Of a stretch of DNA of 64,000 bases, positions 6,788-25,217 are shown one piece after another. Every line of letters starts with the position of its first letter. Position 1 is the first letter of the stretch. Position numbers and translations under genes: made by a program. Below the pieces are notes generated by a model, which saw only the letters and a program-made list of their open reading frames with translations, made no database searches and was not told the DNA's origin. Source of the stretch: Rhodothermales bacterium (GTDB taxonomy: Bacteria > Bacteroidota > Rhodothermia > Rhodothermales > Bin80); the NCBI GenBank assembly GCA_028278205.1, contig JANQES010000094.1, forward strand, positions 17,995 to 81,994. Reading direction: 5' to 3'.

Positions 6788-7111
6788 CTAATTGCTCCAA
6801 TCGCCCAGATCGCAGGCATCGCATGCAGGACAAGGTGAGCCGCCTGCGGCCTGCTCCAGGTCTGCCTCGCTCAACTCCTCCCCTGCCGAGACCGGAGCCG
6901 GCAACGCCGCCGCATAATCGTACCCCTGCGCGTCGAAAAACCTGATCGTGAAGCTCTCGGGCACGGCCACGCCCGTCTCCTGGCGGATGGCTGCGTGCGG
7001 ATCCTTCAGCGCCAGGGCGCGGAATTCGGGGTCGCTCGCCGCCCGATGAAGCACTGCTTCGATGGCGGCCTGGTGATCCTGTCCGGGCCGTTCGACTGAG
7101 TATCTGCTCAT
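6788..7111 (-). CDS. RiPP precursor peptide with NHLP-type (nitrile hydratase-like) leader and Cys/Asp-rich core
   Basis: 107 aa. Leader AASDPEFRALALKDPHAAIRQETGVAVPESFTIRFF...EELSEADLEQAAGG, then core SPCPACDACDLGDWSN. AGGAGG lies 7 nt upstream. The ATG overlaps the TGA of the upstream rSAM gene (ATGA). Confidence 0.8.
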   Translation of the reverse strand: MSRYSVERPGQDHQAAIEAVLHRAASDPEFRALALKDPHAAIRQETGVAVPESFTIRFFDAQGYDYAAALPAPVSAGEELSEADLEQAAGGSPCPACDACDLGDWSN

Positions 7112-7135
7112 GATGTACCTCCTTGTTTGAGTGAC
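7070..7135. repeat. Direct repeat copy 1 (rSAM 3-prime end plus precursor 5-prime end)
   Basis: See 6656-6721. The two copies are 414 bp apart. Confidence 0.85.
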
Positions 7136-8622
7136 TGGTGCTTTCGCCAACCGAGGTGATGCCGGTCGAAGTCGTTGAGGTTGTCGTCGATCATGATGCC
7201 GAGTTCCACCGCGCGCCTGAGTTCCTGGCACCAGCGATCATCCGGCTCGTGCATCGATCCGTGCTCTTCTAGGCTCATGTGAAAGCAGCCGCCGCCGCAG
7301 AAATACCGCGCCCAACACGCGCTACACTTGGGATGCGACAGGCCGTAGTTCTCGAAGTAGGGTTGACGCCGGGTCAGGTCGAAGCCTTCGTTGACGTTAC
7401 CGAGCTTCATGTCTTCCTGCCCCACAAAGCGGTGGCACGGATACACATCGCCGGTGTTGGAAATGCTCATGTAGCTTCGACCGGCGCCGCAGAAATACAG
7501 CTTTCTATTCTTCGTCCAAAGCCGCTTCAAAATGTCGTTGAACCGAGAGGAATAGACGGGGCGGCGTGTTTTGATCAGGTTGATCGTCTCCCGGGCTATC
7601 TGCTCCAGGCTGTTTAAGATTTTCTGCAAATGTACCTGCTTGAGATGCGAGTCGGGCTGCTGGAGCATCACTACATCCGCCCGATGATACGTGGGGCGAT
7701 CCGTGAGCACGGGCAGCGCCTGGAACAGGTCGTCCTCCTCCACGACGCCGGCAGCGACAGCCTCATCAGCGGGCACCTCCTCCAGATTAGGCATCGCGAC
7801 GGTGGTCAACTGAACCGCTTTGAAGCCGATCTCAAGCAGCGCGCGTTGCACCTTTTCCAAATCGGCATTGTAGCCGGTGATCGTAGCGCGCCCGCTGGCC
7901 CGTCCGTCTCTTGAGTCAAGAAAACGTTCTACCCTGGCCTTGATATCTTCGTAGGACCCTTTACCTCCTTTGAAGGGCCGGTTTTTATTCTGCATCTCGG
8001 CATCGCCATCATAGCTGACGACGACGCCGAAGTCGTGTTCGTTGAGGTAGTCAATCGTCTCCTCATTAAATCTGGTCCCGTTGGTCGTTATGGTGAAAGC
8101 AATCTTTTTGCCCTTCGTTTCGGCTTTTTCGGTTGCATAGGCCACCACCTCCTTGATCAGTGGGAAATTCAGCAGCGGCTCGCCCCCAAAGAAACAAATC
8201 GTTAACTGCTCAGCGTCTCCTGCATTATCGATCAGGAAGTCAACCGCTTGATAGGCCGTTCCGCCATTCATATACCCTTTGTGGCCGTACTCTCCGCCCA
8301 CGCCGTAGCAGTAAATACAATCGAGGTTGCAAAGCTGCGCCACGTTCAAGGCGATGGTGGCGATGGGCGCCTTTTCAGGATTCGCAAGCTTGACTTGAGG
8401 CAGCGCAGGCGGTGCGTCCAGTCTCAGGTTCAATTGATCGAGCGCCTCCAACAACGCCGGCTCGACCTGCCGGTCATCGAGCACCGGTTGCTCGCCGAGA
8501 TCCCGAACAGCCTTCGCCAACGGCGCACTGATGCGATAGGCCTCCATGTGCTCAACGTGGAACAGATACCACACATCTTCAAGCGCGAAGGTATGATGCT
8601 CGGCCAGATAAAAGACGGACAT
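7108..8622 (-). CDS. Radical SAM / SPASM-domain peptide maturase
   Basis: CNLDCIYCY (CxxxCxxC) near aa 98. C-terminal auxiliary-cluster cysteines CGAG...YPCH...HPKCSACWARYFCGGGCFH. Confidence 0.9.
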   Translation of the reverse strand: MSVFYLAEHHTFALEDVWYLFHVEHMEAYRISAPLAKAVRDLGEQPVLDDRQVEPALLEALDQLNLRLDAPPALPQVKLANPEKAPIATIALNVAQLCNLDCIYCYGVGGEYGHKGYMNGGTAYQAVDFLIDNAGDAEQLTICFFGGEPLLNFPLIKEVVAYATEKAETKGKKIAFTITTNGTRFNEETIDYLNEHDFGVVVSYDGDAEMQNKNRPFKGGKGSYEDIKARVERFLDSRDGRASGRATITGYNADLEKVQRALLEIGFKAVQLTTVAMPNLEEVPADEAVAAGVVEEDDLFQALPVLTDRPTYHRADVVMLQQPDSHLKQVHLQKILNSLEQIARETINLIKTRRPVYSSRFNDILKRLWTKNRKLYFCGAGRSYMSISNTGDVYPCHRFVGQEDMKLGNVNEGFDLTRRQPYFENYGLSHPKCSACWARYFCGGGCFHMSLEEHGSMHEPDDRWCQELRRAVELGIMIDDNLNDFDRHHLGWRKHQSLKQGGTS

Positions 8623-8965: not shown

Positions 8966-9117
8966 TGGACCGCTACCTCGAAGAGAACCCCGGCAGCCCT
9001 GCCTCGTAATCCGGATGAATAGAGCGAGACCTCGGAGAAGTAGAGCACGCTTTCGAGCATCGGAACCGGATGTTTATGTGTTCCCTTGAATTCTATTAGG
9101 AAGGTCGATTTTTCAAA

Positions 9118-9162
9118 GTCGGGACGGCGAGATTCGAACTCGCGACTCCTTCAACCCCATTG
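9118..9162 (-). repeat. tRNA-Pro 3-prime half fragment (att-like direct repeat)
   Basis: 45 nt match 25143-25187 (3-prime half of the intact tRNA-Pro) with 1 mismatch, in the same orientation. No 5-prime half or cloverleaf is present. Confidence 0.85.
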
Positions 9163-9254
9163 GTGTGACTATCGTGCTAGCATACGCTACAGGTCGCATT
9201 TCGGCGTCGTTTTGAGGATTTTTCGCCCCCCTATGCTAGCAAACGCAGGAGATA

Positions 9255-9292
9255 GCAGGGGGCGTACGTACACGTTGACGTACACCCCCTGC
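9255..9292 (-). terminator. Hairpin downstream of the caspase gene
   Basis: gcagggggcgtacgt / acgtacaccccctgc form a 15-bp stem (1 mismatch) with an 8-nt loop, 28 nt after the stop. No clear U tract. Confidence 0.4.
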
Positions 9293-9319
9293 CTGCCTCA
9301 AAGACTTGCTTCAGCATGA

Positions 9320-10219
9320 TCAGATCGTAAAAGGCTTCTCGGCGTCGAAGCTTAAATGGTCCGGCCCGATCACGTAGTGGTTGGGCTGTTGCTTTTCAGG
9401 CATCTTCGCGATGATCTCCTGGTAAAACGCCTCATAGTCCCCCTCGAAAGCTCCCTCGCCCCACACCTCTAACAGCGTAGCCGTAAACCGGCCATGGGGG
9501 ATGCTCGGGTGTTCCATGGAGTACTGGTCGTCCTGGCAGCCCGATATCAGCCGCACCCTGGCGTGCAACGACGAGGGGTTCTCCGGCAGGGCTTGCTGGA
9601 TGGCTACGTAGAACGGCGAGTTGTTCGTAAACGTCCGCACCGCTTCGGCGGGGGGCATGAACCGGCCCGCCGGCACTTCGCCTTCCGGCGCGTCGGGGTC
9701 TTTGGTTATCGTGCCGCTGTGGCAGCTGTCCGAGAGCACCAGCACACGCACGCCCTCGGCAAACTCGGCCCATAGCTCGTGCAGTTCGTCGTCGAGGATC
9801 TGGCCGTCGTAGAGGCACCAGGTCTCATCGATGTCGTCCTCCTCGTCGTCGTAGCCCTCTTCGTCGGGCACGGTGCCGCCATGGCCGGCGTAGGTGAGCA
9901 AGAAGCAATCGCCTGTTTTGAGCGAGCGGGCCGCGCTGCGGATGCCCTGGATCACGCCCTCACGCGTGGCAAAGTCGGACAAGAGCACGCTCGACCGGAA
10001 GCCTTGTGCGCTGGCAAGCCCGCGGAGCGCTTCGGCATCGGCATGGCAGTTGGGCAGGTAGCCGTCCCAGCCGCTGTAGTGATCGGGGTCCAACCAGTTG
10101 ACCCCGATGTGGAGGGCCAGGCCTTTGGGCCTGGCATCTGCGGGTTGCGCCTCGGCTTGTGCCGCCGGGGCATCGCTTAATTCCTGGGGCACTTGACGGC
10201 CCGTATCAGGTCCAGCCAT
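9320..10219 (-). CDS. Caspase-fold peptidase (C14 family)
   Basis: His/Cys dyad motifs LTYAGHGG and VLSDSCHSG. 299 aa with a low-complexity N-terminus MAGPDTGRQV. Confidence 0.85.
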   Translation of the reverse strand: MAGPDTGRQVPQELSDAPAAQAEAQPADARPKGLALHIGVNWLDPDHYSGWDGYLPNCHADAEALRGLASAQGFRSSVLLSDFATREGVIQGIRSAARSLKTGDCFLLTYAGHGGTVPDEEGYDDEEDDIDETWCLYDGQILDDELHELWAEFAEGVRVLVLSDSCHSGTITKDPDAPEGEVPAGRFMPPAEAVRTFTNNSPFYVAIQQALPENPSSLHARVRLISGCQDDQYSMEHPSIPHGRFTATLLEVWGEGAFEGDYEAFYQEIIAKMPEKQQPNHYVIGPDHLSFDAEKPFTI

Positions 10220-10286
10220 GAGTCTATTCGTTTTTGGGTGTGAAGGATGGAAGTCATAACGCGTGCGTTGACACCCGGCGCGTCGC

Positions 10287-13200
10287 TCAGGCGGACAGGG
10301 CCGGAGCCCAGGTTACAGGCAGCGCGCCGAGGGTTTGGAGGCCGGCCTCCGAAGAGAAGTAATTCAGGTGATGACACACCACGTCGAGCGTCTGCGGGGC
10401 CGGCTGCCGGACGCCGCCCACAGCCCCGATGCTCCGGCTGCTCACTGCGATGTCGTTGGGCTCGTCGTCGTACACGATACCCCCGACACCCACCGTGGCC
10501 TTTTCCAGCAGCCGCTTAAACCCGCCGCCTTGCACCTCGTAGTCGGTGATGTCTCCGGCGAGGATCGTGTAGGGAATGCCGGGGTCGTCGCTGCTGTTGA
10601 GGGTATTCAAGAACGTAGAGCCGGGGGTCATCTGGCCCAGCGTGACGGTCACCTCTTCGGCCCCTTTCAGGACGTTGAGCACGGTGCCGGCAAAGGGGAT
10701 CTGCTTCGTGATAAAGTTGATCGACAGGTTGAGCGCCGTGGAGACGAACTTCCGGTATTGTTCGATGGTGCCGAACTTGCTGCCGCCGTTGGGCGTGCCG
10801 GCCAGGATCAGGTGATCGACCACCTTGTTGCCCTCCTCCTGCTCGATGAACCAGCGGGAGACCAGCCCGCCCATCGAGTGAGCCAGGATGGTGAGATGCT
10901 TGCCGTCGTCTTCTGTGAGCCCGGCCAGGGCCAGCTCGCGCTTCAACGTCTGGGCGGTCTCTTCGATGGGAGTGTTGAGGTTTTCGTAGTCGTAGGTCAG
11001 CATCAGATCGAAACGGTCTTTGAGGCTCCGGCCCTCGGCGTCGCGGGCGTGGGGCAGTCCGGCGGCTATCGATTCGGTGTCGCCGATGATGCCGTGGATC
11101 GCCAGCAGGATGGTGTCGGCGGCGGCGACCTTTTCGTTCAGGCTCTCGCTGCGGCGTTCGACGCTGCCGTCTTCCTGGAAGTCCGCCCAGCAGAGCTTAT
11201 TGATGCGGTCGGTCTCTTGCTTGAGCGCCACCTTGAAGAAAGCCATCTTGAGCGCCTTGAACAGGCTCCGGTCCTGCGGTTCCTCGCCGAAGGGATTGAC
11301 GGCCTGCCCGCCGTCGGTGAGTACCGGCTCGACGTCGGGCAAGGCGCGGATGCGGACGACGGTTTCACCCTCTTCGACCGCGGAATCGCCGATGACGACG
11401 AAGTTTTGCCCGTCGAAGGCGATGGGCAGCAGCATCGCGTCGTTGTCGTCCGCGCCGGGCAGGACGATTTCGAGCGGGTCGTCGAAGAGCGCCGCCGGAT
11501 CGTCGATCTCCAGGTTGCTGAGTTCCACCACGTTCTGCGCGCCGAGATCGCGGTGGCTGCTGAAGTTCATCATCTGGAAGGCCGGGTCGTCGAAGAGCGC
11601 GAAGCGGTTGGCCGGGTCGGTGCTGCGCGTGCCGGTCTGGGCCGCGCCGAGGTTGACTTTTGCGCGGACGCCGGCGTGCGGCCGGATGCGCAACGCGCCG
11701 CCGGCCAGGCTCACCTCGTTGGCGGCCTGGACCTCATCGACCTGCCGGACCATCGTCACCCGGATCGTCCGGCTGGCCCAGGCATCGAAGACCTTTTGCG
11801 GGGCAAACGCGCCGAACGTCGCCCGCGACCCGCCCAGGCCGTCCTGGAGAAGCTGGATGTAGTCCAACTCTTCGGTCGTGACGAACAGCTTGAAATAGAC
11901 GGTGGCCTCTTGCTCGTCTTCGTTGAGGCCCCACCCCATAATGCCATCCGGCATCCCCTTCATCAGCGGGAATATGGCCTGGCCCTCGTGTTCGCCGGGC
12001 CTGAAGACGATCTCGCCCTCGTCGCACTGGATGCTGTAGTCGTTGTTGAGCAGCAGTAGATAGAAATAAAGCTCCTGCGTGGCGCTGGTCTTGACGACAG
12101 GCTTGAAGCCCATCAAGTCGGCCTTCGCGTCCGCATTCCAGAACGTGTTCTCCTTGGAAGCATACAGCTTGATCTCCGGCCCGGTGAAGGTGCCCTGAGA
12201 CACCGGCCCTCTATCACCTGCCTCGAAAACCTCCACGTCGAAGTCGAACATATTCTCGATCCGCGAATCAGGGTTTTCCAACGCCACCGTCCGCTCCCAG
12301 CGCGCAATGCGGCCCAGGCTTTGGAGGATGAGTTGGGCTAATTTGGCCGTGTACGCACCCTGGTCAGGCCCCTCTTCGAGGTGTTCCTGATGGATTTTCC
12401 GCCTGCTTTCCACGTCGCGGATGATGAACGCGCCGTCTTGCGCTTCTACTTCCACCTCCGGCTGCTCGTCGCCGTCGCGGGTCTCTACGTAGAGGACGTT
12501 TTTCGAGCGGTCCCAGTGTTCTTTGAGCAGGTCCACACCCGCCACGTCGCCGTGAATCCAGACGTATTTGGGCGGTGCGGGTAAATGATGGAGGACGCCT
12601 TGATAGGTCTTCTTGGGTTCCAACGCGGCGTCCGCCGGTAGCGCGAGCGGGCTGCGCTGCGCACCGACACGGGTGATGGTGGCCTGGGCGACGACTTGCT
12701 TGTCGGGTGCCGGCCCCCGGACTTCGACTTCGAGGGGTTTCTCCGCCTGCGTAGGCAGGCCGTGGATGGCGCCGCACTTGACGTACCAGGCGTCGCTGCC
12801 CGCGTCGTGGTAGACCTCGTAGGTGTCCGGGTCGCCCAGGGGCTCGCCGCTCAGGAAGCGGGTGTAGGGGTTGAAGCTGCCGATGGTCTCGAACTGCGGC
12901 GTCTGGTTCTTGCCGATCCGTTTGGCCGAAGCGCGGGTGCGGACGAAGAGGTCGGCGTAGTTGATGGCGCCGTTGGCGCTGCCCAGCGCGCGCATCAGGC
13001 TGCTGGTGAAGATGCCGCCGAAGGGCTTGTCGCCCGCCTTCTGGACGCTCTCGCAGGCCGAAAACAGGACGTGTTTGGACAGGGGGACGTGCAGCGCCTC
13101 GCCCTGCCGGGCATAGTAGCCGTCGAGATACGAAGCCAGGGGCCGCGCGTCGCCGCCACGAGCCGGGACGTTGCGCGTCCGGAACAGCGGATCGTCGCCG

Positions 13201-13682
13201 AGGTCGCGGGTGCCGGAGCCGGAGTGGCAGCAATCCAGCGAGACGACCAGGTGCGGCCCCGACGCCTTCTCGGAACCATCGGGAAACTGCGTCTCCACCT
13301 CGTGCAGCAGGGCGGCCAGTTCTTTGTCGGCCAGGTGGAGGCCGTCGGGGCGGCTGTCGAAGCAAACCAGCGTCTGGTCTTTGCCGTTGGGTTCTAGCTT
13401 GAGGAATTCCTCGGCGGTGGGTTCTTCGGAACCGTGGCCGCTGAAATGAAAGAAGGCCACGTCGTCCGCGCCGGCCCGGCACAGGTGCTCGCGGAAGCCT
13501 TTGACGAGGTTGGCGTAGGTGGCATTTTCGTTTTCGAGCCGGTGGATGAAAAGCTCGCCCTCGCCGAACTGACCGCGGAGGAATTTTTCAACCTTGTCGA
13601 TGTCGAAGATGCAACCGTTGAGCGTAGAGACGGGCGCCGGGTAGGTGTTGATGCCGACGAGGAAAGCGTATAGGCGTTTCAT
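10287..13682 (-). CDS. Caspase-fold peptidase fused to a C-terminal alpha/beta-hydrolase (lipase/esterase-like) domain
   Basis: ATG at 13682 (MKRLYAFLVGINTY). FHFSGHGS and SLDCCHSGSG dyad at the N-terminus. C-terminus has LAIHGIIGD, nucleophile elbow ILAHSMGGLV, and LAGTPNGGS. About 550 aa of unassigned middle region. Confidence 0.85.
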   Translation of the reverse strand: MKRLYAFLVGINTYPAPVSTLNGCIFDIDKVEKFLRGQFGEGELFIHRLENENATYANLVKGFREHLCRAGADDVAFFHFSGHGSEEPTAEEFLKLEPNGKDQTLVCFDSRPDGLHLADKELAALLHEVETQFPDGSEKASGPHLVVSLDCCHSGSGTRDLGDDPLFRTRNVPARGGDARPLASYLDGYYARQGEALHVPLSKHVLFSACESVQKAGDKPFGGIFTSSLMRALGSANGAINYADLFVRTRASAKRIGKNQTPQFETIGSFNPYTRFLSGEPLGDPDTYEVYHDAGSDAWYVKCGAIHGLPTQAEKPLEVEVRGPAPDKQVVAQATITRVGAQRSPLALPADAALEPKKTYQGVLHHLPAPPKYVWIHGDVAGVDLLKEHWDRSKNVLYVETRDGDEQPEVEVEAQDGAFIIRDVESRRKIHQEHLEEGPDQGAYTAKLAQLILQSLGRIARWERTVALENPDSRIENMFDFDVEVFEAGDRGPVSQGTFTGPEIKLYASKENTFWNADAKADLMGFKPVVKTSATQELYFYLLLLNNDYSIQCDEGEIVFRPGEHEGQAIFPLMKGMPDGIMGWGLNEDEQEATVYFKLFVTTEELDYIQLLQDGLGGSRATFGAFAPQKVFDAWASRTIRVTMVRQVDEVQAANEVSLAGGALRIRPHAGVRAKVNLGAAQTGTRSTDPANRFALFDDPAFQMMNFSSHRDLGAQNVVELSNLEIDDPAALFDDPLEIVLPGADDNDAMLLPIAFDGQNFVVIGDSAVEEGETVVRIRALPDVEPVLTDGGQAVNPFGEEPQDRSLFKALKMAFFKVALKQETDRINKLCWADFQEDGSVERRSESLNEKVAAADTILLAIHGIIGDTESIAAGLPHARDAEGRSLKDRFDLMLTYDYENLNTPIEETAQTLKRELALAGLTEDDGKHLTILAHSMGGLVSRWFIEQEEGNKVVDHLILAGTPNGGSKFGTIEQYRKFVSTALNLSINFITKQIPFAGTVLNVLKGAEEVTVTLGQMTPGSTFLNTLNSSDDPGIPYTILAGDITDYEVQGGGFKRLLEKATVGVGGIVYDDEPNDIAVSSRSIGAVGGVRQPAPQTLDVVCHHLNYFSSEAGLQTLGALPVTWAPALSA

Positions 13683-13841
13683 GATAATTCGTTGTAGGTT
13701 GGTTAAAGAATAAATCCCGTCGAGGAAGGGCTGTGCAATGAACACAGGTTGGAGCCGCGCCCGGCCTGTCACAGTCGCGCTTTACCTATCTATGCCTAAA
13801 ACAGCACGGAATTTTTCATACCCTCGAAAAAAAGAGGGCAC
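13683..13841 (-). promoter_or_regulatory. Promoter/5-prime-UTR module copy A (upstream of the caspase-lipase gene)
   Basis: Alignable along its whole length, up to the ATG, with 21509-21670. Conserved core GAGGGYATGAAAAATTCCGYRCTGTTTTAGGCATRGATAGGTAAAG. Possible TTCCGY-N17-TAGGTA promoter. Confidence 0.55.
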
Positions 13842-13878
13842 TTGCATGGAGGTCTTCGTATTGCGTTCAGAAAGGCAC

Positions 13879-15315
13879 CTACGACAACACTTCGACGCCT
13901 GGAAGCAAGTCTTCCAAAATGGCAAACCGTACGCGTGTGCGTTCCTGGCTTTCGTCGTTATTCGAAATCAGGCCGCGCCGTACCTGCTTTTTGACCCTTT
14001 TCAGCGTTGCCTGGTGCGAGGTAACGTCATTATAGAGGTCCTCGTCTCTATCCTTCAGACCGGTTTCAAGCAAGTCGAGCGCCTGTTCGAGTTTATCCGA
14101 GGCGACGAGTTGCCGGATCTCTTCGACGGCGTCCTGCTTTCCAGGGCTGGGCATTGTGCTTGAGGGCCGGCGTGCGGAGGGTTGGGGTGCGCGGGACGGG
14201 GTCAGTTGCGGCGCGAAGAGGGTGCCGTCGGGCGAGCGCATAAACAGCACGGGTGTGGCCCATTCTACGGAGTCGTCCAGGCAGATCGCCACGCGGCCCT
14301 CGGCCACGGCCTCATCCACCGAAACGCCGAGCGCCAGTTGTCTATAGATCTCTCCGGCAAACGTGATCGCGGCGGTGTCGGTGATGGGAAACTGCATCGC
14401 CACCACCGCCGGGATGCCTTCCATCACCAGCGCCGAGGCCACCCCCGCGAACGGGTCGAGGTGGTCGGTTTTGGTGCTCTGGGCCGTCTGACACGCATTC
14501 AAGAAGACCAGGCGCACGCCGGTGCCGCGCAGCGCAACCCGGAGCTGATCCCCGCTCACCTTCAACTGACAACCCTGCTCATCCTCCATCAACAAGACCC
14601 CCTCTCCGGTGTTCGCGTCGAAGGTGCCGTGGCCCGAATAGTGCAAGACGTGAAACGGCTGCGCTTTGAGCCGGGCGCGTAAGGCTTGCAACGTGGTGCC
14701 CTGGACGACCTCGACTGCGACGTGCTGCGTATCCTGCCAGCTCGCTTCGATCTTTTGTCGCTCTGCCTCCAGGTTGAGCGCGTCGGTGCCGGGCGGGTTG
14801 GCCAGCACCACGAGGATGCGCAGTGGCGGCGCGAACGGCGGCGGATCTTCGGGGCGCATCACGTCGAGGTAGCGCACGACCGGGGTCTGGCTGTTGAGGT
14901 TCAGGTATTCGTTCTTCTCCGGGTCGTAGAGGAGTTCCCAGGGGAGGTTCGCCAGGAGAGCATGGTCCGGCTGGTTCAGGTCGAGGTGGAGCTTGATGCG
15001 CAGCCCACCTTTGCCGTAGACCCGGCCTCGGCTCTCGGAGAACGCCGTGCCCACCGGCCCGGTGAACAGCGCCTCGAAGAGCCGGGTGCCTACCGCGCGC
15101 GGCGAGAGATCCTGGGTGAAGATCGGCGCAAACGTGCCGCGATACCGCCCCAGCGCAGCCAGGACGCCCTCGGCTTCGCCGGGCGCGTAGGGAAGCTGGA
15201 GCGGTGAGGTGGACGTTTGGCCGGCGGGAGACTGTATAACCTGGACGGTGAAGCGCCCTTCGGCCTGGGCCTCCATCTGAATGGAGAAGTCTTCGTAGCG
15301 GATCATGGTGTTCAT
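13879..15315 (-). CDS. CHAT-domain protease with C-terminal helical adaptor-like (EAD-like) module
   Basis: LPWELLYD, HVLHYSGHG and LVFLNACQT (CHAT His/Cys). The last 85 aa align with the C-terminus of the SIR2-like protein. Confidence 0.85.
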   Translation of the reverse strand: MNTMIRYEDFSIQMEAQAEGRFTVQVIQSPAGQTSTSPLQLPYAPGEAEGVLAALGRYRGTFAPIFTQDLSPRAVGTRLFEALFTGPVGTAFSESRGRVYGKGGLRIKLHLDLNQPDHALLANLPWELLYDPEKNEYLNLNSQTPVVRYLDVMRPEDPPPFAPPLRILVVLANPPGTDALNLEAERQKIEASWQDTQHVAVEVVQGTTLQALRARLKAQPFHVLHYSGHGTFDANTGEGVLLMEDEQGCQLKVSGDQLRVALRGTGVRLVFLNACQTAQSTKTDHLDPFAGVASALVMEGIPAVVAMQFPITDTAAITFAGEIYRQLALGVSVDEAVAEGRVAICLDDSVEWATPVLFMRSPDGTLFAPQLTPSRAPQPSARRPSSTMPSPGKQDAVEEIRQLVASDKLEQALDLLETGLKDRDEDLYNDVTSHQATLKRVKKQVRRGLISNNDESQERTRVRFAILEDLLPGVEVLS

Positions 15316-15349
15316 GAGGACTGGGGTAAGGGGCTCTTCTATTGGGGAT

Positions 15350-17197
15350 TCACTGGCTGGCCGTTAACTGCTCGGTGGATTGCCCGGAGGCTTCCTTTAG
15401 CACTGAATTGAGGCTATCCTTTATCGAGCGCAAGCGTTCGATTTCTTTCTTCTTAACCTCCACGAGGCTGTCATTCCTGGCTTGCTCATAGATGATAACA
15501 TCTTGTTCTAATCCTTTAATTTTCAGATTTTTTTCTTCAATCTTTAAGGCCATGATACTATCTGCTGCATCCTTAACGAGGCCGCCTTCCTCAGCTTGCC
15601 GATAGATGATGGTGTCTTGTACTAATACGCCAATACTTGTTTTGATTTCGCCAATCTGTGCACCTAAGGATGCCTGCAAATGCTCTCTAGCCATTTGATA
15701 GTTCTCCTCAGCTTCTTGTGTCGCTCGTTTGGCAGAATTGTAATAGAAGCCGACGAACACCAGCGCGATTAAGGCGATGCCAGCTAAGATATAGGCGAGG
15801 CGGCGTCCCTGGACGGCTTTAACCCGAAGCGCAGCTTCCTCCTTCGCTTTGGCCAGGGCCTCCTCGGCCCGTCGCTCAGCTTCGCGGCGTTCAGCTTCCG
15901 CTTGCCTGTGCAGGGCTTCCTGTTCGCGGCGTCGTTCTTCGGCCTGGCGGGCGTGTTTGGCCTCCAGGATGGGCTCCACCAGCGTATCGTGGCTCAACTC
16001 GTAGGTGTAGCCGCCGCTCATGTTGGGCTCGGCCCGCAGCAGGTGGTGTTTGTTGACCAGCAAGCTCAGGATCTCATCGGAGATCCCTTTACCGTGGATG
16101 ATGCCTTCGTAGAGCGAGATCCGCCGCTTGTCCGGCTCGAAGATCAGGTCTTCCTCGATCAGCTTGCGCACGGTGAGGCGTTCCTCATCGGTGGGTATCT
16201 CGTCCAGCATGGCGTCGTAGTAGCGCCGGTAGATCCGGCTGAGGTCGCCCAGGTCGTCGGGGCGAACCTGGGGGATGCCGGCCTGATTTCGCTGCCTGAC
16301 GGCGCCGTCCTCAACCAGGTGTTCGGCGTGCTGGCAGATGATCTGGAGCTGGGTGGTCTCGATGGTAGCCTGGCCGCCGCCGGAGAGAAAATTGAGGATG
16401 AAATCGAGCGCCTCATCGGTGTAGTCGAAGCGCTGGACGGCAAAGTCGGAGTCGTTGTGATAGGCCGGGTTGAGGATGGCGTCTTCGGCTTGAAGACGGG
16501 TCAGCGGTTTGAGTTGATAGGTTTTGTGGAGGATATCCGGCAGGTGGTCTTTGAGTTCGTCGAGGAAGCTCATGCGGTCGGAGCGGATGGCGAAGACCAC
16601 TTTGAGGTTGAGCGGCTGGAAGAGGGCTTCCTGTTCGGCGGCGTCGAGGGTTACGGCCTGGCGTTCGAGCACCGCGCGGACGGGCTTGGGGATCCGTTCG
16701 TAGAGCGCCTGGGCCAGTTGGGCGGCAAAGGCCTTAATCTGAGCCGGAGGGTAGGTGAAGAGCTCTTCGAACTGATCCAGAATCAGCAGCAGGGGCTGAT
16801 CGGGGTGAAGGCCCTGCACCGACTTCAGGGCTTGCCAGAGCGGAACCGCTTCGCCGAAGCGGCCGGTCCAGTCGCCGGCCCGGCCCAGGGCGCGGAGGCG
16901 TTCCAACACGTTTTGCAGGGGCGTGTGTGCATCGCCGGCCTCGGTGTAGCTGCCGAAGCGGAGCGGCACGGCAAAGACCCCGGCGCGCCCGCCTTCACGA
17001 GATTCTTGCAGCCGGGGGACCACAGCGGCATTGAGCAGCGAGCTTTTGCCGAGGCCGGATTTGGCATAGAGTACCACCATCTGCTCCAGCCTGATCTTTT
17101 CGACCAGGCGGCGGGTGTCTTCTTCGCGCCCGTAGAAGATACGGCGGTCGTTCGGGGTAAAGGGCTGGGCGCCGGGATAACGATAAGCTGTGCTCAT
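15350..17197 (-). CDS. STAND-type P-loop NTPase (nSTAND-like) with coiled coil, one TM helix and a C-terminal tail
   Basis: YPGAQPF..IFYGREEDT, Walker A AKSGLGKSS, Walker B LLLILDQFEELF, FAIRSD. Then a charged coiled coil, the TM helix LAYILAGIALIALVFVGFYY, and a 129-aa AT-richer tail. Confidence 0.85.
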   Translation of the reverse strand: MSTAYRYPGAQPFTPNDRRIFYGREEDTRRLVEKIRLEQMVVLYAKSGLGKSSLLNAAVVPRLQESREGGRAGVFAVPLRFGSYTEAGDAHTPLQNVLERLRALGRAGDWTGRFGEAVPLWQALKSVQGLHPDQPLLLILDQFEELFTYPPAQIKAFAAQLAQALYERIPKPVRAVLERQAVTLDAAEQEALFQPLNLKVVFAIRSDRMSFLDELKDHLPDILHKTYQLKPLTRLQAEDAILNPAYHNDSDFAVQRFDYTDEALDFILNFLSGGGQATIETTQLQIICQHAEHLVEDGAVRQRNQAGIPQVRPDDLGDLSRIYRRYYDAMLDEIPTDEERLTVRKLIEEDLIFEPDKRRISLYEGIIHGKGISDEILSLLVNKHHLLRAEPNMSGGYTYELSHDTLVEPILEAKHARQAEERRREQEALHRQAEAERREAERRAEEALAKAKEEAALRVKAVQGRRLAYILAGIALIALVFVGFYYNSAKRATQEAEENYQMAREHLQASLGAQIGEIKTSIGVLVQDTIIYRQAEEGGLVKDAADSIMALKIEEKNLKIKGLEQDVIIYEQARNDSLVEVKKKEIERLRSIKDSLNSVLKEASGQSTEQLTASQ

Positions 17198-18282
17198 ACC
17201 AGTTCCTCGTTAAGACTCAGTAGATTAAATCGTAGCTTGGCGCGTGAGGCAGAAGCTTCCTCTTCCGTGACGATACCCTGCCGCTCCTTACGCTTCTGGC
17301 GCGAGAGCCGGCCACTGAGACTGATCGCCTCGTCGAGGAATTCGTCCTCGCCGATGTCTTCGAAGTGATCGGTCAAGAAGGCCAGCGCATCTTCCAGGCG
17401 ATCCTGCTCCACCATTTGCTTGACCCGCTCGGAGGGTCCGGCTCCCGCTGCCGGGTCGGGCCGGAGCAGGCCGGCGGCGGCGCATTGCGTGTGCAGTTGG
17501 TCTATGAACGCCCGCACGCCTTCCTGGTCGCGGATGATGCGGATGTCGAACTCGCCATCGAGCACATTCATCACCGCCTGGTCTACCTCGGTCTGCTCCG
17601 GCACCCAGGTGTAGGCCACGTGGCTGTCGTTGATGCTCCGGATGAGCCGTAGCAAGAGTTGCACGTACCACTTCTCGAACTGAAAGCCCAGGAAGACAAA
17701 GTAGCGCGCCCGTTGCAACGCAGCCTTGAGACTGGAGCCAAGCTCGCGAGCCCCGAGGATCGATTTGATGTATTCGAAGAGGTCAGCGTGGGTGAGGATC
17801 AGCGATTCCTCGTCTTCGATGCAGCCGAAGAGGTCGTAGAGCAGCGGCCGGTCGGCGGTGGGGGCGTCCATCTCCGCCCCGCAGCGCTTCATATGATAGA
17901 ACCCATAGTTGAACAGATAGGGGATCTCCAGGCGGGGAAAGGTCTGCCTGGGATTGAGGTAGGGAGAGAAGGAAAGCAGCAAGTGCAGTTGTATCGAGGC
18001 CAGCTTACGCAAGAGATCCGGCACGAGGGGATGTTTTTTCAACTGGTCTTTGAGCGTGAAGTAGCTCTCGTTCTGGGCCGAGCGTTTGCCGAAGAGGAAG
18101 AGTTCGTCGTGCTTGTAGTAGGCCAGCAGGTTGCGCTCGTGCTCCTGCCGGATCGTTTCCATCAGGTACGGATGCAGCGGGCGACTCTCGCCGTCTACAT
18201 CGATCTCCAGCATGTTCGGCCCCAGGAGGACAACGCATTTGTCCTCTCGGATGGCTTGAAGAAGGTGGTCCCAGTTAATCAT
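17194..18282 (-). CDS. SIR2_2-like (divergent) domain protein with C-terminal helical adaptor-like module
   Basis: Motif order resembles the SIR2_2 family (VVLLGPNM, LLLSFSPY, LLYDLFGC, LILTHADLFEY, FVFLGFQFEKW), but the expected catalytic positions look substituted. Its TGA overlaps the NTPase ATG. Confidence 0.6.
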   Translation of the reverse strand: MINWDHLLQAIREDKCVVLLGPNMLEIDVDGESRPLHPYLMETIRQEHERNLLAYYKHDELFLFGKRSAQNESYFTLKDQLKKHPLVPDLLRKLASIQLHLLLSFSPYLNPRQTFPRLEIPYLFNYGFYHMKRCGAEMDAPTADRPLLYDLFGCIEDEESLILTHADLFEYIKSILGARELGSSLKAALQRARYFVFLGFQFEKWYVQLLLRLIRSINDSHVAYTWVPEQTEVDQAVMNVLDGEFDIRIIRDQEGVRAFIDQLHTQCAAAGLLRPDPAAGAGPSERVKQMVEQDRLEDALAFLTDHFEDIGEDEFLDEAISLSGRLSRQKRKERQGIVTEEEASASRAKLRFNLLSLNEELV

Positions 18283-18335
18283 CGTAGTTGGGTTTTATTG
18301 AGCGCGCCGGGGCACGGGTTTGAAAAGACAGGAGA

Positions 18336-21218
18336 TTACTGCTTCGGTTCGGGCGGCACGAGCATTTCTCCCCGGTCGTTGATGTAAAACATCAGGTTAT
18401 GCTCGGCCACGTAGACCCGGGCAACCCGCTCGTCGTTCTTGTCATGGAAGGGCGTCACGGCGTCGTAGCGGGCCTCGATGGGGTCATAACTATCGCGGTT
18501 TTTATCCCAGCGCATGAAGCCCCATTTGCCCTTTTGTTTAACCAGGAGCAAGTTGGAACTGGAATCGTTGGAACCGGAATCAGCGGAGATACCGTAACCG
18601 ATCTGCTCATAGTCACAGGGTAGGAAACGGAGGGTATCCGTCTTCGCCCCGTCGGAGCCGTTCGCCGCGAAGGCCACGAAGCCCTTGCGGTTGCCTTGCC
18701 AGGTGAGATACATGCGACTTCCGACGTACGCCAGACTGTCGTACTCCGGTGAAAGGACCACCTCCCCGGCAGCATTGATCAGGCCGACTTTGCCGTTTCT
18801 CTCTACCTGCGCGAGCCCCTCGAAAAAGGGCGCTACCCTATCAAAGAGATACATCGGGTCAACGACTTCGAGGCCGTGCTTGTCGATCACGCCCCATAGA
18901 CCGACAACGAGGCTGTCCTGGTCGTTCACTTCTATGCTGTCTCTCTTCACCCAGGCGAGCCCCTCGGAGAAATCCCTTATCTGATCATACTGCGGTTTGA
19001 CGATGTTAAACGGTTCGGCGACGATGTCGCCCTGATTGTTGATAAAACTCCATTGATCCTCTCCCTTCACCAAAGCGAACCCCTCGGAGAAATCCCTTAC
19101 CTCATCATAGCCATTCGTCGGGTCGACGACGAATTTGCCCTGCTGGTTGATTGCGCCCCATTGGCCGTCTCTCTTCACCCAGGCGAGCCCCTCGGAGAAA
19201 TCCCTTACGTCATCATACCCATTCGTCGGATCGACGACGAGGCTGTTCTTGTTGATAAAGCCGTATTTCTTTGTGCTGTCTTGGTACACCCAGGCGAGCC
19301 CCTCGGAAAAAGGCCCTACCCTATCAAAGCCGTACTGCGGATCGACGACGAATTTGCCCTGCTGGTTGATCACGCCCCATAGGCTGCCCTGGCGCACCCA
19401 GGAGAGCCCCTTGGCACGCCCTACCCTATCAAAGTCATACTTCGGGGCAACGACAATGCCGTCCTGGTTGATGTCGACGACGACGCTGCTGTCCTGGTTG
19501 ATAAAGTCGTATTCTGTGCTGTCTTGGCGCACCCAGGCGAGCACCTCGAAGAAGCGCCCTGCCCTATCAAACTCAAGTTCCAGATTGACGACGAGGCTGC
19601 CCCGCTGGTTGATCACACCCCATTGGCCGTCTCTCTTCACCCAGGCGAGACCCTCGGAGAACGCCCTTACCTCATCATACCCATTCGTCGGATCGACGAC
19701 GAGGCTGCCCTGCTGATTGATCACGCCCCATTGGCCGTCTCTCTCCACCCAGGCGAGCTCTTTGGAGAAGCGCTCTACCCTATCAAACGCATGATCCAGT
19801 TTGACGACTTCGACGCCCAGCGTGTCGATCACGCCCCATAGGCCGGCCCTCTGCACCCAGGCGAGACCCTCGGAAAAGGGTTCTACCTCATCAAACGCAT
19901 GATCCAGTTTGACGACTTCGACGCCCAGCGTGTCGATCACGCCCCATAGGCCGGCCCTCTGCACCCAGGCAAGCCCTGAGGAGAACTCTCTTACCTCATC
20001 AAACTCATGTTTCAGATTGACGACGAGGCTGCCCTGCTGGTTGATCACGCCCCATCGGCCGGCCCTCTGCACCCAGGCAAGCCCTGAGGAGAAGCGCCTT
20101 GCCCTATCAAAGTCATGCTTCGGGTCGACGACGAATTTGCCCTGCTGATTGATCACGCCCCATAGACCGACGTTGAGGCTGACCTGGTTGATCACTTTTT
20201 TGCTGTTTTTGCGCACCCAGGCAAGCCCCTCGGAAAAGGACCCTACGTAACTAATATGTTCCAGTTTGACGATGAGGCTGTCCTGCTGGTTGATCACGCC
20301 CCATTGGCCGTCTCTCTTCACCCAGGCAAGCCCCTCGGAGAACGCCCTTTCATGTTTCAGATTGACGACGGGGCTATCCTGCTGGGAGAAGTGCTCTTCT
20401 TTATCAAACAGCGGTTTGACGATGCGGACACTCTGCTGGCGGTACGGTTTGCGCGACACGAAATCAGGCCTATCCACTTCATTCTTTTTGCATCCCTTTG
20501 CGTCGAATGCGGAAACTACAGGCTCTTTGGCCTTGTCTGGAATCCCCCCATAGTAGTTGAATGTATCTGTAACATTGCTATCCGATAATACTGCGGAGTG
20601 CAGCCAATTGTAGCTTTCGCTTTTTTGCTGCTCTTCACAGTCACACGCGCGTCCTTGTGTACACACCAACCAGTACTTATCCTCACTTTGTGCAATGGCT
20701 ATGCCCTTCCAGAAGCCTTTGGGGTCTTCCCAAAGAAAATCTCCATAACGCTGCCCCGCTGTGTCTATCACCGCAAACTTTTTATTCTTAATACTATACG
20801 CCCACGAGAAATTTTCCTCGCTGCCTTCTTCAAAAAAATATTCTTTCATATCAGCGAGGAGCCTGGCGATTTCTTTCTTTTTTTTTCTGAGTTCTTCGGA
20901 AAGGTCAGCTTGATGCATCTCATATTTGATTCCACCGAAAAGATGATCATTCATCCTTTCAGCGACCGCCTTTGCGCTGTCCGGTCTATACCGCGCTGCC
21001 GCCTGATACTTGTGGATCGCTTGCTCGTATTTCCGTCTCTCCACTAAGTTATCGGCATCGGACATCAGGCGCTTGTAGGTCGTGCCTTCTTCGGTCGTCT
21101 CTGCGTACTGCGTGTCAGCCTGAGCAACGATATCCGATTGTGCCCGTGTGACCTGGGGGTAACTGCCGGCCAGGATTAACGCAGCGAGGAGCGCGATGGG
21201 GTAGCGGCGTGCGTTCAT
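18336..21218 (-). CDS. Secreted WG-repeat (KWG-type) protein, about 17-19 repeats
   Basis: Signal peptide MNARRYPIALLAALILAGSYPQVTRAQS. Repeated unit F(S/D)EGLAWV.RDGQWGVINQQG..VV with a period of about 36 aa. The N-terminal region of about 230 aa is AT-richer. Confidence 0.85.
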   Translation of the reverse strand: MNARRYPIALLAALILAGSYPQVTRAQSDIVAQADTQYAETTEEGTTYKRLMSDADNLVERRKYEQAIHKYQAAARYRPDSAKAVAERMNDHLFGGIKYEMHQADLSEELRKKKKEIARLLADMKEYFFEEGSEENFSWAYSIKNKKFAVIDTAGQRYGDFLWEDPKGFWKGIAIAQSEDKYWLVCTQGRACDCEEQQKSESYNWLHSAVLSDSNVTDTFNYYGGIPDKAKEPVVSAFDAKGCKKNEVDRPDFVSRKPYRQQSVRIVKPLFDKEEHFSQQDSPVVNLKHERAFSEGLAWVKRDGQWGVINQQDSLIVKLEHISYVGSFSEGLAWVRKNSKKVINQVSLNVGLWGVINQQGKFVVDPKHDFDRARRFSSGLAWVQRAGRWGVINQQGSLVVNLKHEFDEVREFSSGLAWVQRAGLWGVIDTLGVEVVKLDHAFDEVEPFSEGLAWVQRAGLWGVIDTLGVEVVKLDHAFDRVERFSKELAWVERDGQWGVINQQGSLVVDPTNGYDEVRAFSEGLAWVKRDGQWGVINQRGSLVVNLELEFDRAGRFFEVLAWVRQDSTEYDFINQDSSVVVDINQDGIVVAPKYDFDRVGRAKGLSWVRQGSLWGVINQQGKFVVDPQYGFDRVGPFSEGLAWVYQDSTKKYGFINKNSLVVDPTNGYDDVRDFSEGLAWVKRDGQWGAINQQGKFVVDPTNGYDEVRDFSEGFALVKGEDQWSFINNQGDIVAEPFNIVKPQYDQIRDFSEGLAWVKRDSIEVNDQDSLVVGLWGVIDKHGLEVVDPMYLFDRVAPFFEGLAQVERNGKVGLINAAGEVVLSPEYDSLAYVGSRMYLTWQGNRKGFVAFAANGSDGAKTDTLRFLPCDYEQIGYGISADSGSNDSSSNLLLVKQKGKWGFMRWDKNRDSYDPIEARYDAVTPFHDKNDERVARVYVAEHNLMFYINDRGEMLVPPEPKQ
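19784..19970. repeat. Recent tandem duplication inside the WG-repeat gene
   Basis: The 79 bp at 19784-19862 are identical to 19892-19970 (period 108 bp, or 36 codons). Confidence 0.9.
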
Positions 21219-21403
21219 GATCTCACCTGTCGTATTAATGCATTCAAGAAAAGACTACCGCATGGTTTGATTGAAAAGAGAGGAAGCCCGGTGTCTTGGC
21301 CCACACCCCCGACGCAAGCGAATACCTCGCGTCAGGGCTGCGGGCCGTACACACCTGTCAGAAACCCCAGGTCCTACTTAAGCCGGCGCCAGTGTTTCTG
21401 CCG

Positions 21404-21508
21404 TTACGAGGGGGGCGCAGCGCGTCCGCGGTCAGGGCCTGCGCGTCCGTGGTCGGGGCCTGCGCGTCCGTGGTCGGGGCCTGCGCGTCCGTGGTCGGGT
21501 CCAGCCAT
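21404..21508 (-). CDS. Possible small ORF, 34 aa, heptad-repeat peptide MAGPDHGRA(GPDHGRA)x2 GPDRGRAAPPS
   Basis: ATG at 21508 with GGAGGT 7 nt upstream. Coding is uncertain and this may be a gene remnant. The first codons and upstream bases resemble the caspase gene start at 10219. Confidence 0.3.
   Translation of the reverse strand: MAGPDHGRAGPDHGRAGPDHGRAGPDRGRAAPPS
21420..21502. repeat. 21-bp tandem repeat, about 4 copies
   Basis: The unit gcgcgtccg(c/t)ggtc(a/g)gggcct repeats at 21420, 21441, 21462 and 21483. Confidence 0.9.
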
Positions 21509-21670
21509 GATTGATACCTCCTTTTGGATTGTTTAAGGAAAGATCCCTTCGAGAAAGGGCGCTGAGATGAAAACAGATTGAGGCCACACACGGCCTGCCA
21601 CAGTCACCCTTTACCTATCCATGCCTAAAACAGTGCGGAATTTTTCATGCCCTCGCAAAAAAGTGGGCGA
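21509..21670 (-). promoter_or_regulatory. Promoter/5-prime-UTR module copy B (upstream of the small ORF and WG operon)
   Basis: Paralog of 13683-13841, with the same spacing to the downstream ATG. Confidence 0.55.
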
Positions 21671-21862
21671 AAGACTTTTAACTCTAACGGGTGTTCGGGA
21701 AAAGAAGAAGCCCTTAAATCATTAAAAATATTAATCGGGTAGGAGACGGGGATGACTTGAAAAGAGGATGGCTGCCCTGTCTTCCAAGATTTATATCCCG
21801 AACTCCTGTTAACGCTATCACGAAGGGCGTCAAAAGCCCCGCCGGTTGCCTGTTTTTTGGAG

Positions 21863-24721
<2,859 letters not shown>

Positions 24722-25082
24722 GGCAGGCAAGGGCTGCCGGTGTGCGTCGAGGTCAATGGGGACACGGCCTGAGCACTTCAGCGCATTGGGGGGGTGCGGC
24801 TCTACTGGTAAACAATAAAACGAGCAAACTCTTAGAAAACAAGATCAAATGAGAAAAAACCCAAAAAACGAGACCACCCGCTACAGCATACCTTGTTTTT
24901 CCTCAGCGGCAGGCCGGGGCGCAGCCTCCGGCGTGTCCATCGCGGCGAAGTGTTCGAGCCCGTTTCCAGCTCGAATGCTTCCTGGCCATCAACCTGATGG
25001 GACATGATGTGCGGGTGCGTATCAGGTGCATTTTCCTGGACAGATCTGGACTGAGCCCTCAAAATTCACTATTTCAACAACA

Positions 25083-25128: not shown

Positions 25129-25143
25129 GCCTTGAAAGCCCTG

Positions 25144-25217
25144 TCGGGACGGCGAGATTCGAACTCGCGACCCCTTCAACCCCATTGAAGTGCGCTACCT
25201 GGCTGCGCTACGTCCCG
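25144..25217 (-). tRNA. tRNA-Pro (anticodon GGG)
   Basis: Manual cloverleaf: acceptor CGGGACG/CGTCCCG, D arm GCGC-AGCCAGGTA-GCGC, anticodon arm CTTCA-ATGGGGT-TGAAG, T arm GCGAG-TTCGAAT-CTCGC, discriminator A. 74 nt, CCA not encoded. Confidence 0.9.

Follow-up and report, generated by a model that had tools for sequence, protein, structure and literature searches.

A tRNA-bounded island of a Rhodothermales bacterium carries a SIR2-like/nSTAND1 pair, a putative core of trans-envelope signalling to an EAD11-CHAT protease, beside a caspase-lipase fusion

In this work we analysed a 64,000-nucleotide (nt) stretch of DNA from a Rhodothermales bacterium (GCA_028278205.1, contig JANQES010000094.1, positions 17,995-81,994, forward), hereafter the window, in which six consecutive minus-strand genes had been proposed from the letters alone to form one system, an NTPase switch with five death effectors. 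The six open reading frames (ORFs) lie at the coordinates that this sequence-only reading gave them, and all its domain calls (WG repeats, SIR2_2, STAND NTPase, CHAT, caspase twice, lipase-like hydrolase) are supported by Pfam. The window cluster is nevertheless not one conserved six-gene system: only the pair formed by the SIR2-like gene and the nSTAND1 NTPase gene is conserved, a sensor gene joins it in short-tail forms of the NTPase, the caspase-lipase fusion is autonomous and the lone caspase is unlinked. We favour, with a probability of about 0.55, a composite model in which two conflict modules, serving immunity or programmed death, lie side by side on the island carrying these genes, together with co-cargo. 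Module A, composed of the WG-repeat, SIR2-like-EAD11, nSTAND1-transmembrane (TM) and CHAT-EAD11 proteins, is read by us as a trans-envelope STAND signalling system, and Module B, the caspase-lipase fusion, would act autonomously. Related loci used for comparison, about 90 in all, bear L-numbers (L003, L089 and so on).

The NTPase gene (15350..17197, minus strand) encodes an nSTAND1 domain at amino acids (aa) 7-408 (Pfam PF20703, E = 5e-29) with intact Walker A (AKSGLGKSS, aa 45) and Walker B (LLLILDQFEELF, aa 136) motifs, together with YPGAQPF..FYGREEDT and FAIRSD; across 30 NTPase homologs, GKS and DQFEE are invariant. These motifs, like those quoted for the caspases and the CHAT protein, had been read correctly and are present in the translations. 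Past aa 408 the protein continues with a charged coiled coil (aa ~412-466), one TM helix (aa 467-486, nt 15740-15799), which bears out the proposed membrane anchor, and a helical tail of 129 aa that has no Pfam match. The NTPase domain is predicted to be cytoplasmic, the single TM helix putting the tail outside the cytoplasm; the Omp85- and BamB-type genes present in the window indicate a diderm host, so that the term periplasm is meaningful here. The protein starts directly with the nSTAND1 module. No effector-associated domain (EAD) or effector domain was found on the NTPase itself, nor any C-terminal fused sensor repeats (FGS, beta-propeller, TPR), and a search for a cryptic EAD11 or hairpin in the tail and coiled coil gave nothing significant, the tail having no EAD match at E <= 10.

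Homologs of this NTPase number more than 1600, mostly in Bacteroidota (Saprospiraceae, Lewinellaceae), and many of them carry a C-terminal FGE-sulfatase domain. Gene neighbourhoods were surveyed in 80 species-representative loci from at least six phyla. A SIR2-like ORF abuts or overlaps the nSTAND1 gene on the same strand in 64 of these 80 loci, and in every close NTPase homolog examined a SIR2_2(+EAD11) gene lies directly upstream and overlaps the NTPase gene. Pfam SIR2_2 matches 70 of 72 partners. In 68 of 74 loci a single TM helix comes directly after the NTPase module, and in long-tail forms the region beyond this helix is often a WD40 propeller (about 20 of 72). The invariant core consists of two overlapping genes, one SIR2-like and one for an nSTAND1 NTPase with a single TM helix. 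The expectation that the homologs of the window genes co-occur in other genomes is thus verified across the family for this pair, the other genes not being constant partners.

The SIR2-like gene (17194..18282, minus strand; Pfam SIR2_2 E = 5e-11, EAD11 E = 7e-14) shares a 4-nt ATGA overlap with the NTPase gene and is translationally coupled to it. Its product is composed of a SIR2-fold domain (aa 1-280) and a C-terminal EAD11 (aa 286-361, nt 17200-17427). An AlphaFold2 (AF2) model of the protein, with a pLDDT of 81, matched KomC, ThsA, DSR2, Avs5 and SIR2-HerA with a Foldseek probability of 1.00. Ser106, Tyr108 and Phe152 stand in place of Asn, Asp and His: when a profile of the 72 partners is compared with KomC, TTNYD falls on S-F-S106-P-Y108 and FHG falls on L-F152-G, and TTNYD and FHG of KomC hold the residues that are altered in deposited inactive mutants. 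The SIR2 domain of the window protein is therefore predicted to be catalytically dead, a loss that the sequence-only reading had missed, and the SIR2 fold, which had been counted among the death effectors, does not appear to be one here because the catalytic Asn and His are both replaced.

The same loss is widespread in the family. The modules fused to the 72 SIR2-like partners are EAD11 (26), TIR (23), cyclase (3), CHAT (2), EAD7 (1) or none, and they may stand on either side of the SIR2 domain. Asn and His are both retained in eight of the 72 partners; all eight are found among the 10 stand-alone partners (~290-305 aa), versus none of 62 partners carrying a fused EAD11, TIR, cyclase or CHAT (Fisher's exact p = 3.8e-9), and all 26 EAD11-bearing partners are without both catalytic residues. 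The simplest reading of this distribution is that an ancestral pair of active SIR2 and nSTAND1 repeatedly lost its SIR2 chemistry after gaining another effector or adaptor, the SIR2 fold being retained as a module that docks onto the NTPase. Such a pattern points to effector modules swapped on a constant hub and to the evolution of enzymes into adaptors. We read the SIR2-like protein of the window as a docking adaptor whose EAD11 would recruit the EAD11-CHAT protease.

An alternative, unlikely in our view though slightly less so than the two discussed below, is that the SIR2-like domain keeps a nucleotide pocket and acts as a non-canonical NAD+ or nucleotide enzyme, or as a ligand-binding gate of the NTPase. 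Gly21, Gly153 and Gly199 (Rossmann-type), Pro146, Asp167 and Trp205 are nearly invariant in the 72 partners despite the loss of Asn and His, what are apparently the same partners were given a nucleotide-hydrolase-type label, DrHyd, by Kaur et al. (2021), and the solved relatives ThsA and KomC are filament formers activated by ligand. However, the residues mutated in inactive KomC and DSR2 structures (TTNYD to TTAYD, FHG to FAG, H171A, H146N) are both replaced here, the conserved Asp of the family is also gone in the window protein (Tyr108), and residue loss tracks perfectly the gain of another effector or adaptor module.

The candidate client of this adaptor is the CHAT protein, encoded 34 nt downstream of the NTPase gene (13879..15315, minus strand; Pfam CHAT E = 1e-35, EAD11 E = 1e-15). 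It has a His229/Cys275 dyad in the motifs YSGHG and FLNACQT, and an EAD11 at aa 397-468 (nt 13912-14127). That the SIR2-like and the CHAT protein each carry a C-terminal EAD11 had escaped the sequence-only reading; this places the same EAD on the core component and on the effector of one locus. The window is not the only example, as a second EAD11 gene also adjoins the pair in L010, L029, L036 and L093. This second EAD11 is fused to CHAT in the window, L029 and L036, and to unannotated domains in L010 and L093. We read CHAT-EAD11 as an effector protease that could be recruited through its EAD11. In L010 (2332-3180) and L093 (8996-9736), the EAD11 genes are transcribed divergently from the SIR2-EAD11/nSTAND1 pairs and encode an N-terminal EAD11 followed by about 170 aa that have no Pfam match, which makes them candidates for unrecognised effector domains.

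The third component is the WG-repeat protein, encoded 53 nt upstream of the SIR2-like gene (18336..21218, minus strand; Pfam WG_beta_rep E = 2e-114). Secretion had been proposed for it, and a signal peptide is indeed found (aa 1-26), followed by a TPR-like hairpin (aa 46-90, nt 20949-21083) and at least 11 WG beta-repeats. The hairpin is what connects it to the rest of the family. When 43 short-tail loci were surveyed for a gene abutting the NTPase stop codon, most had a large same-strand gene at this position, and in most of the products a conserved TPR-like hairpin, 'Y..A(I/L).KYNAA....P', comes after a signal peptide. A hidden Markov model (HMM) of this hairpin matches the gene adjoining the pair in about 17 independent loci; it matches the window WG protein at aa 46-90 (E = 5e-15), as well as the separate FGE-sulfatase gene of L006 and the WG genes of L089 and L091, and gives no match to the TPR-rich kinase encoded on the same island. 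Beyond the hairpin, these proteins consist of WD40 (about 12 of 27), WG or FGE-sulfatase bodies, which mirrors the fused nSTAND1-TM-propeller proteins, so that the split and fused forms look equivalent; in the window the separately encoded secreted WG protein apparently takes the role of the fused sensor. The hairpin is confined to split loci with short or medium tails, where it is either on the secreted protein or in the NTPase tail. The latter situation is met in L013 (9998-11731), L033 (9992-11854) and L071 (9977-12148), with L013 having the hairpin additionally on the downstream secreted protein; these cases could mean that hairpins contact one another homotypically, or that genes have split and fused.

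WG repeats are a real addition to the locus, as they are kept in the window's own clade, where WG genes lie directly upstream of the pair (L089/L090, L091); one WG paralog in L089 carries LysM. Within this clade the WG proteins are only ~25% identical, versus 58-59% for the SIR2-like partners, a divergence that would be expected of a fast-evolving receptor. The WG gene itself has a G+C content of 0.53-0.57, compared with 0.60-0.645 in the five downstream genes, and contains 108-nt (36-aa) tandem repeats at 70-80% identity; both features are consistent with repeat turnover or with a different history. A literature search on WG_beta_rep found one structure-modelling paper and nothing on function. 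The same arrangement is found on plasmid pHALHY02 of Haliscomenobacter hydrossis DSM 1100 (L097, NC_015512.1, 732-7709), where a SIR2-EAD11 gene overlaps that of a 550-aa TM-anchored nSTAND1 protein, after which come genes for two WD40 proteins with signal peptides. The catalytic His is also lost (YNLFG) in this plasmid-encoded 'SIR2 family protein'. A plasmid-borne example in a cultured type strain provides a tractable model in which the proposed scheme can be tested directly.

Downstream of the CHAT gene, after a gap of 196 nt, lies the gene for the caspase-lipase fusion (10287..13682, minus strand; Pfam Peptidase_C14 E = 6e-16, DUF7379 E = 9e-17). The 1131-aa product has a caspase domain with His83/Cys152 in the motifs FSGHG and DCCHSG, a beta-rich middle (aa ~290-858) and a C-terminal lipase-like alpha/beta-hydrolase, DUF7379, with Ser936/Asp1077/His1105. 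In 44 sequences His83/Cys152 and Asp1077/His1105 are invariant and Ser936 is nearly so (at least 90%). The AF2 model (pLDDT 81) shows, by structure search, a metacaspase-like N-terminus, the beta-rich middle and a C-terminus resembling family-I lipases. The start codon that had been chosen, at 13682, was the right one: the homolog consensus begins MKxLYALLVGIN, and a 30-codon GTG extension (1161 aa) would translate a duplicated non-coding leader. Full-length homologs number more than 600, in many phyla. In three other genomes (L094, L095, L096) the homolog is a lone gene amid unrelated neighbours, and for this reason we regard the fusion as an autonomous module, in which the pair of caspase and alpha/beta-hydrolase would be joined in cis. 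A literature search on DUF7379 found nothing. Beside the homolog of L095 (12288-19591) are genes for a group-II-intron-like or diversity-generating-retroelement (DGR)-like reverse transcriptase, an FGE-sulfatase protein and a CHAT protein, an arrangement reminiscent of a defence island.

All the window genes described so far belong to an island of ~16 kb (9163-25142), every gene of which is on the minus strand. The claim that the island is flanked by tRNA was substantiated by a direct repeat of 45 nt: the 3' 45 nt of an intact tRNA-Pro(GGG) (25143..25217, minus strand, ARAGORN), at 25143-25187, are found again at 9118-9162 as the 3' 45 nt of a degenerate tRNA-Pro remnant (9118..9191, minus strand) at the distal end. 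The two copies of this attachment-site (att)-like repeat are identical at 44 of 45 positions and in direct orientation (blastn and alignment). By default ARAGORN reports one tRNA in the region, the intact one, and misses the remnant, which it calls tRNA-Pro(ggg) under relaxed settings. A weak Rfam tmRNA match at 9116-9230 is not a tmRNA, since the remnant accounts for it. The island has the features of tRNA integration, an intact tRNA and a direct repeat of its 3' end, without an internal integrase: no integrase or recombinase domain was found among the island ORFs, all of which are accounted for, or in the immediate flanks, which consist of ordinary chromosomal genes. Adjacency to a tRNA was rejected as a general trait of the family, related loci generally not lying beside one. 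Just outside the island, at 7108-8622 on the minus strand, is a gene for a radical-SAM/SPASM peptide maturase, which is matched best by TIGR04064, the nif11-like peptide maturase, with an E of 1e-113 that stays below the cutoff for an equivalog.

In addition to the six genes from 21218 to 9320, the island contains a kinase-TM-TPR gene, which the sequence-only reading had missed, and a 34-aa repeat ORF. The lone caspase (9320..10219, minus strand; Pfam Peptidase_C14 E = 2e-21; His113/Cys166, motifs YAGHG and DSCHSG) is separated from the fusion gene by 67 nt and has no counterpart in any related locus. Single-sequence phmmer found no caspase gene in the 80 loci, and since this search is insensitive to divergent caspases, caspase absence from these loci is weakly established. 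The Ser/Thr kinase-TM-TPR protein (21863..24730, minus strand; Pfam Pkinase E = 3e-47 plus TPR families) has one TM segment, ARWMIAGGIGAFGVLLLITAFLVGQI, followed by a TPR-rich extracytoplasmic region. It was considered as a system component and rejected, as only two of 80 loci have a kinase near the SIR2-nSTAND1 pair. PADLOC PD-T4-6 kinase profiles match this protein (E = 5e-87), these being generic kinase matches. The lone caspase and the kinase are island co-cargo and not conserved partners. A kinase domain is also found near the nSTAND1 locus of L006, where a gene of unusual architecture (15972-20654, 1560 aa) combines it with domains of class-I aminoacyl-tRNA synthetases (tRNA-synt_1, Anticodon_1) and adjoins a DNA methylase/Vsr cluster.

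A 157-nt element occurs exactly twice in the window, as copies that are 80% identical (blastn), both on the minus strand. Copy 1 (21513..21668) stops 4 nt short of the small ORF's ATG, and copy 2 (13683..13839) ends at the caspase-lipase ATG. It was rejected as a structured RNA or riboswitch (fold z = +0.8, and +0.95 for the 21513-21668 copy; no Rfam family), and no copy was found in any related locus. The element is probably a duplicated promoter/operator-leader, implying either co-regulation or a recombination footprint, and copy 2 is the probable mark of a second transcription unit. The small ORF (21404..21508, minus strand, MAGPDHGRAGPDHGRAGPDHGRAGPDRGRAAPPS) has a strong AGGAGG ribosome-binding site and is built of a 21-nt tandem repeat (4.1 copies, 92% matches, 21412-21499, Tandem Repeats Finder). 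At its start the product looks like the lone caspase at its N-terminus (MAGPDTGR; 22/30 nt identical). The ORF could encode a leader peptide, be a remnant of a caspase 5' end, or specify a small repeat peptide.

These observations bear on a second alternative, in which the whole block is one integrated six- or seven-gene system and nSTAND1 activates the CHAT protease, whose cleavage of the lone caspase and of the caspase-lipase zymogen would activate both in a proteolytic cascade, with several effectors firing at once. All genes are on one strand in a 16-kb att-bounded block, and hence would be mobilised together; the same 157-nt element precedes both units, suggesting common regulation; a CHAT-to-caspase cascade has a precedent in SAVED-CHAT/PCaspase, and hydrolase zymogens cleaved by a caspase exist. 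We nevertheless regard this cascade as improbable, as the fusion is a lone gene with unrelated neighbours in the three other genomes mentioned above, close relatives of the core (L089, P0125 contig, L003, L006) have neither the caspase-lipase nor the lone caspase downstream, neither caspase protein carries EAD11, and the largest gap of the cluster, the 196 nt with their own leader, splits the two units.

In the composite model, Module A would work as follows. The WG protein would bind an extracytoplasmic cue, either an invader or an envelope-damage signal, and its hairpin module would dock on the outer tail of the NTPase. The signal would cross the membrane and set off NTP-dependent oligomerisation of nSTAND1. 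The SIR2-like protein, sitting on the NTPase as a docking adaptor, would then recruit and concentrate the EAD11-CHAT protease by homotypic EAD11-EAD11 binding; CHAT would be activated by induced proximity, and proteolysis of cellular targets would lead to growth arrest or death. Module B would be a self-contained protease-gated lipase, a zymogen in cis and a possible, though not a necessary, substrate of the CHAT protease.

Several observations weigh against this model. The NTPase has no detectable EAD11 through which the SIR2-like protein might dock. For the effector EAD11, the partner in the same locus is the nearest sequence in only three of five loci, at low identities of 25-32%. The position of the sensor gene is variable, upstream of the pair in the window and downstream in most loci, and single-sequence phmmer found no WG gene in any of the 80 species-representative loci; the WG linkage comes from three related loci and could partly reflect shared ancestry. 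Since the tail of the window NTPase has no significant similarity to the hairpin module, the proposed contact between sensor and tail is purely conjectural. The 157-nt element ahead of both units hints at co-regulation, in which case Module B may be less independent than we propose. Finally, domain content and island context are the only grounds for preferring an immune role to another signalling role, and no phage-borne homolog was found in a phage collection.

This last point is the core of a third alternative, namely that the locus has nothing to do with immunity against invaders and is an envelope surveillance, developmental or kin-recognition pathway of filamentous Bacteroidota, in which periplasmic repeats would monitor the cell wall or neighbours, and CHAT would carry out regulatory proteolysis or sacrifice damaged filament cells. 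The sensors are indeed extracytoplasmic, and the LysM of the L089 paralog is peptidoglycan-binding. The best NCBIfam match of the CHAT domain, far below cutoff, is HetF, a cyanobacterial cell-division and differentiation protease. The family has its main concentration in filamentous Saprospiria (Haliscomenobacter, for example), Kaur et al. tie such systems statistically to a multicellular habit, and Doré et al. mention kin recognition as another possibility. We consider this pathway unlikely as well. The variable modules (TIR, cyclase, CHAT, active SIR2) are the standard set of immune and death effectors, the sensor diverges rapidly, the locus is carried by a horizontally acquired island in the window and by a plasmid in H. 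hydrossis, and the FGE-sulfatase sensors of sister systems are candidates for DGR-diversified antigen receptors.

If the scheme proposed for Module A were extended to the whole family, the more than 1600 NTPases, mostly from Bacteroidota, would be transmembrane NLR-like receptors that watch the periplasm, each with a detachable, fast-evolving, secreted beta-repeat receptor docking by its hairpin, a killed SIR2 serving as death-adaptor and an EAD11 recruiting a caspase-fold protease. This generalisation is tentative and we think it rather doubtful; if true, it would provide a bacterial counterpart of the receptor-adaptor-caspase extrinsic death pathway, and would document the conversion of an immune NADase into a scaffold. 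To our knowledge, every characterised bacterial STAND or NLR-like immune sensor (Avs, bNACHT) detects its trigger in the cytosol. Here the sensor would be outside the membrane and the executioner inside, so that STAND immunity would act before or at genome entry, or the system may instead answer envelope damage or neighbouring cells.

With respect to known systems, the view that the locus has no experimentally characterised match holds. PADLOC gave only generic caspase and CHAT profiles, with no match for the NTPase, the SIR2-like or the WG protein and with its Avs/NLR and Thoeris models silent, NCBIfam gave nothing specific, and no match to the locus, nor experimental work on any family member, was found in the literature. 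Current tools for finding defence systems, PADLOC among them, lack models of the sensor, the NTPase and its SIR2-like partner, and such loci are therefore invisible to them in Bacteroidota genomes.

The locus belongs to the nSTAND1/EAD conflict systems predicted computationally by Kaur, Burroughs, Iyer and Aravind (eLife 2020, PMC7159879; 2021, PMC8195603), in which homotypic adaptors bridge a core component and effectors. Its assignment to these NTP-dependent conflict systems, already made from the letters, is upheld by the fact that the NTPase and the adaptors match Pfam nSTAND1 and EAD11, both of which derive from these two studies. The NTPase is of the same clade, with a TM anchor, an upstream effector-type gene and EAD pairs that would bridge core and effector, and the sensor repertoire (beta-propeller, FGE-sulfatase) is shared in sister loci. 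Many of the operons recorded by Kaur et al. (2021) read 'TIR+DrHyd-> nSTAND1(+TM)+BetaPropeller', the proteins behind 'TIR+DrHyd' genes including 'nSTAND1+TM+BetaPropeller/FGS' forms, and 'nSTAND1+TM+...' occurs 412 times in their source data; both the pairing and the TM anchor are therefore already on record, and the membrane-anchored NTPase is not the novelty that it had been taken for. They label the upstream partner DrHyd or '?', and we infer that their DrHyd is the SIR2-like domain seen here. The locus departs from these systems in three ways: the EAD is on a separate, apparently dead SIR2-fold partner and not on the NTPase; the putative sensor is encoded in trans, as a secreted WG protein with a dedicated hairpin, and not as a fused C-terminal domain; and the context of EAD11 is new, this domain being listed by Kaur et al. 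(2021) only on AP-GTPase proteins.

Avs5/SIR2-STAND and the other antiviral STANDs (Avs1-4, bNACHT) resemble the locus in that a STAND NTPase is coupled to a SIR2 fold, Avs5 filaments being among the structural neighbours of the SIR2-like protein, and activation by oligomerisation would be expected by analogy. However, an Avs protein is one cytosolic chain in which an active effector stands at the N-terminus and a TPR sensor of phage proteins at the C-terminus, whereas here the SIR2 is encoded by a separate gene and is without the Asn and His, and the NTPase is TM-anchored with a tail predicted to be extracytoplasmic. ThsA, DSR2 and KomC are the closest solved folds to the SIR2-like domain, but the catalytic Asn and His that these NADases need are replaced in it, and there is no SLOG, TIR or DSR2-type sensor; no TIR or SLOG domain was found by Pfam in any of the six proteins. 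The locus likewise differs from Thoeris, as it has no set of ThsA SIR2-SLOG and ThsB TIR and no PADLOC Thoeris match.

The caspase plus alpha/beta-hydrolase module was predicted by Kaur et al. (2020), and is represented by LcCaspase/LcHydrolase, in which site-specific caspase cleavage (R|G sites) activates a hydrolase zymogen (Evans et al., bioRxiv 10.1101/2025.11.14.688446). The fusion protein shares with it an intact His/Cys dyad and a lipase-like Ser-Asp-His hydrolase, and by analogy a protease-gated role is proposed, but the two activities are in one 1131-aa chain, with about 570 aa of beta-rich domains between them. The CHAT protease encoded beside a caspase-family protease recalls the SAVED-CHAT to PCaspase cascade of type III-B CRISPR/CBASS hybrids, in which CHAT activates a caspase (Steens et al., bioRxiv 10.1101/2023.06.23.546230). 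The PADLOC SAVED_CHAT profile matches the CHAT domain with E = 3e-17, in its CHAT part only (profile positions 102-282 of 498). Unlike SAVED-CHAT, which undergoes cA3-induced filamentation, the protease here would be activated by EAD11 recruitment to the STAND hub, and no SAVED, cyclase or cas genes are found on the island. EACC1-caspase, gasdermin-protease and CRISPR-linked CHAT systems (Craspase, SAVED-CHAT) are set apart by their defining partner genes, which were not found here: no EACC1-like gene was detected (NCBIfam caspase_w_EACC1 scores of 24-29 bits vs a cutoff of 140), and none of eight island and flank proteins matches a PADLOC gasdermin model. Finally, the order of events proposed for Module A evokes metazoan extrinsic apoptosis (death receptor, FADD, caspase-8). 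The components of the two are not homologous apart from the caspase fold, and the likeness would be one of logic: in both, a sensor would act through a membrane transducer and a non-enzymatic homotypic adaptor on a caspase-fold protease.

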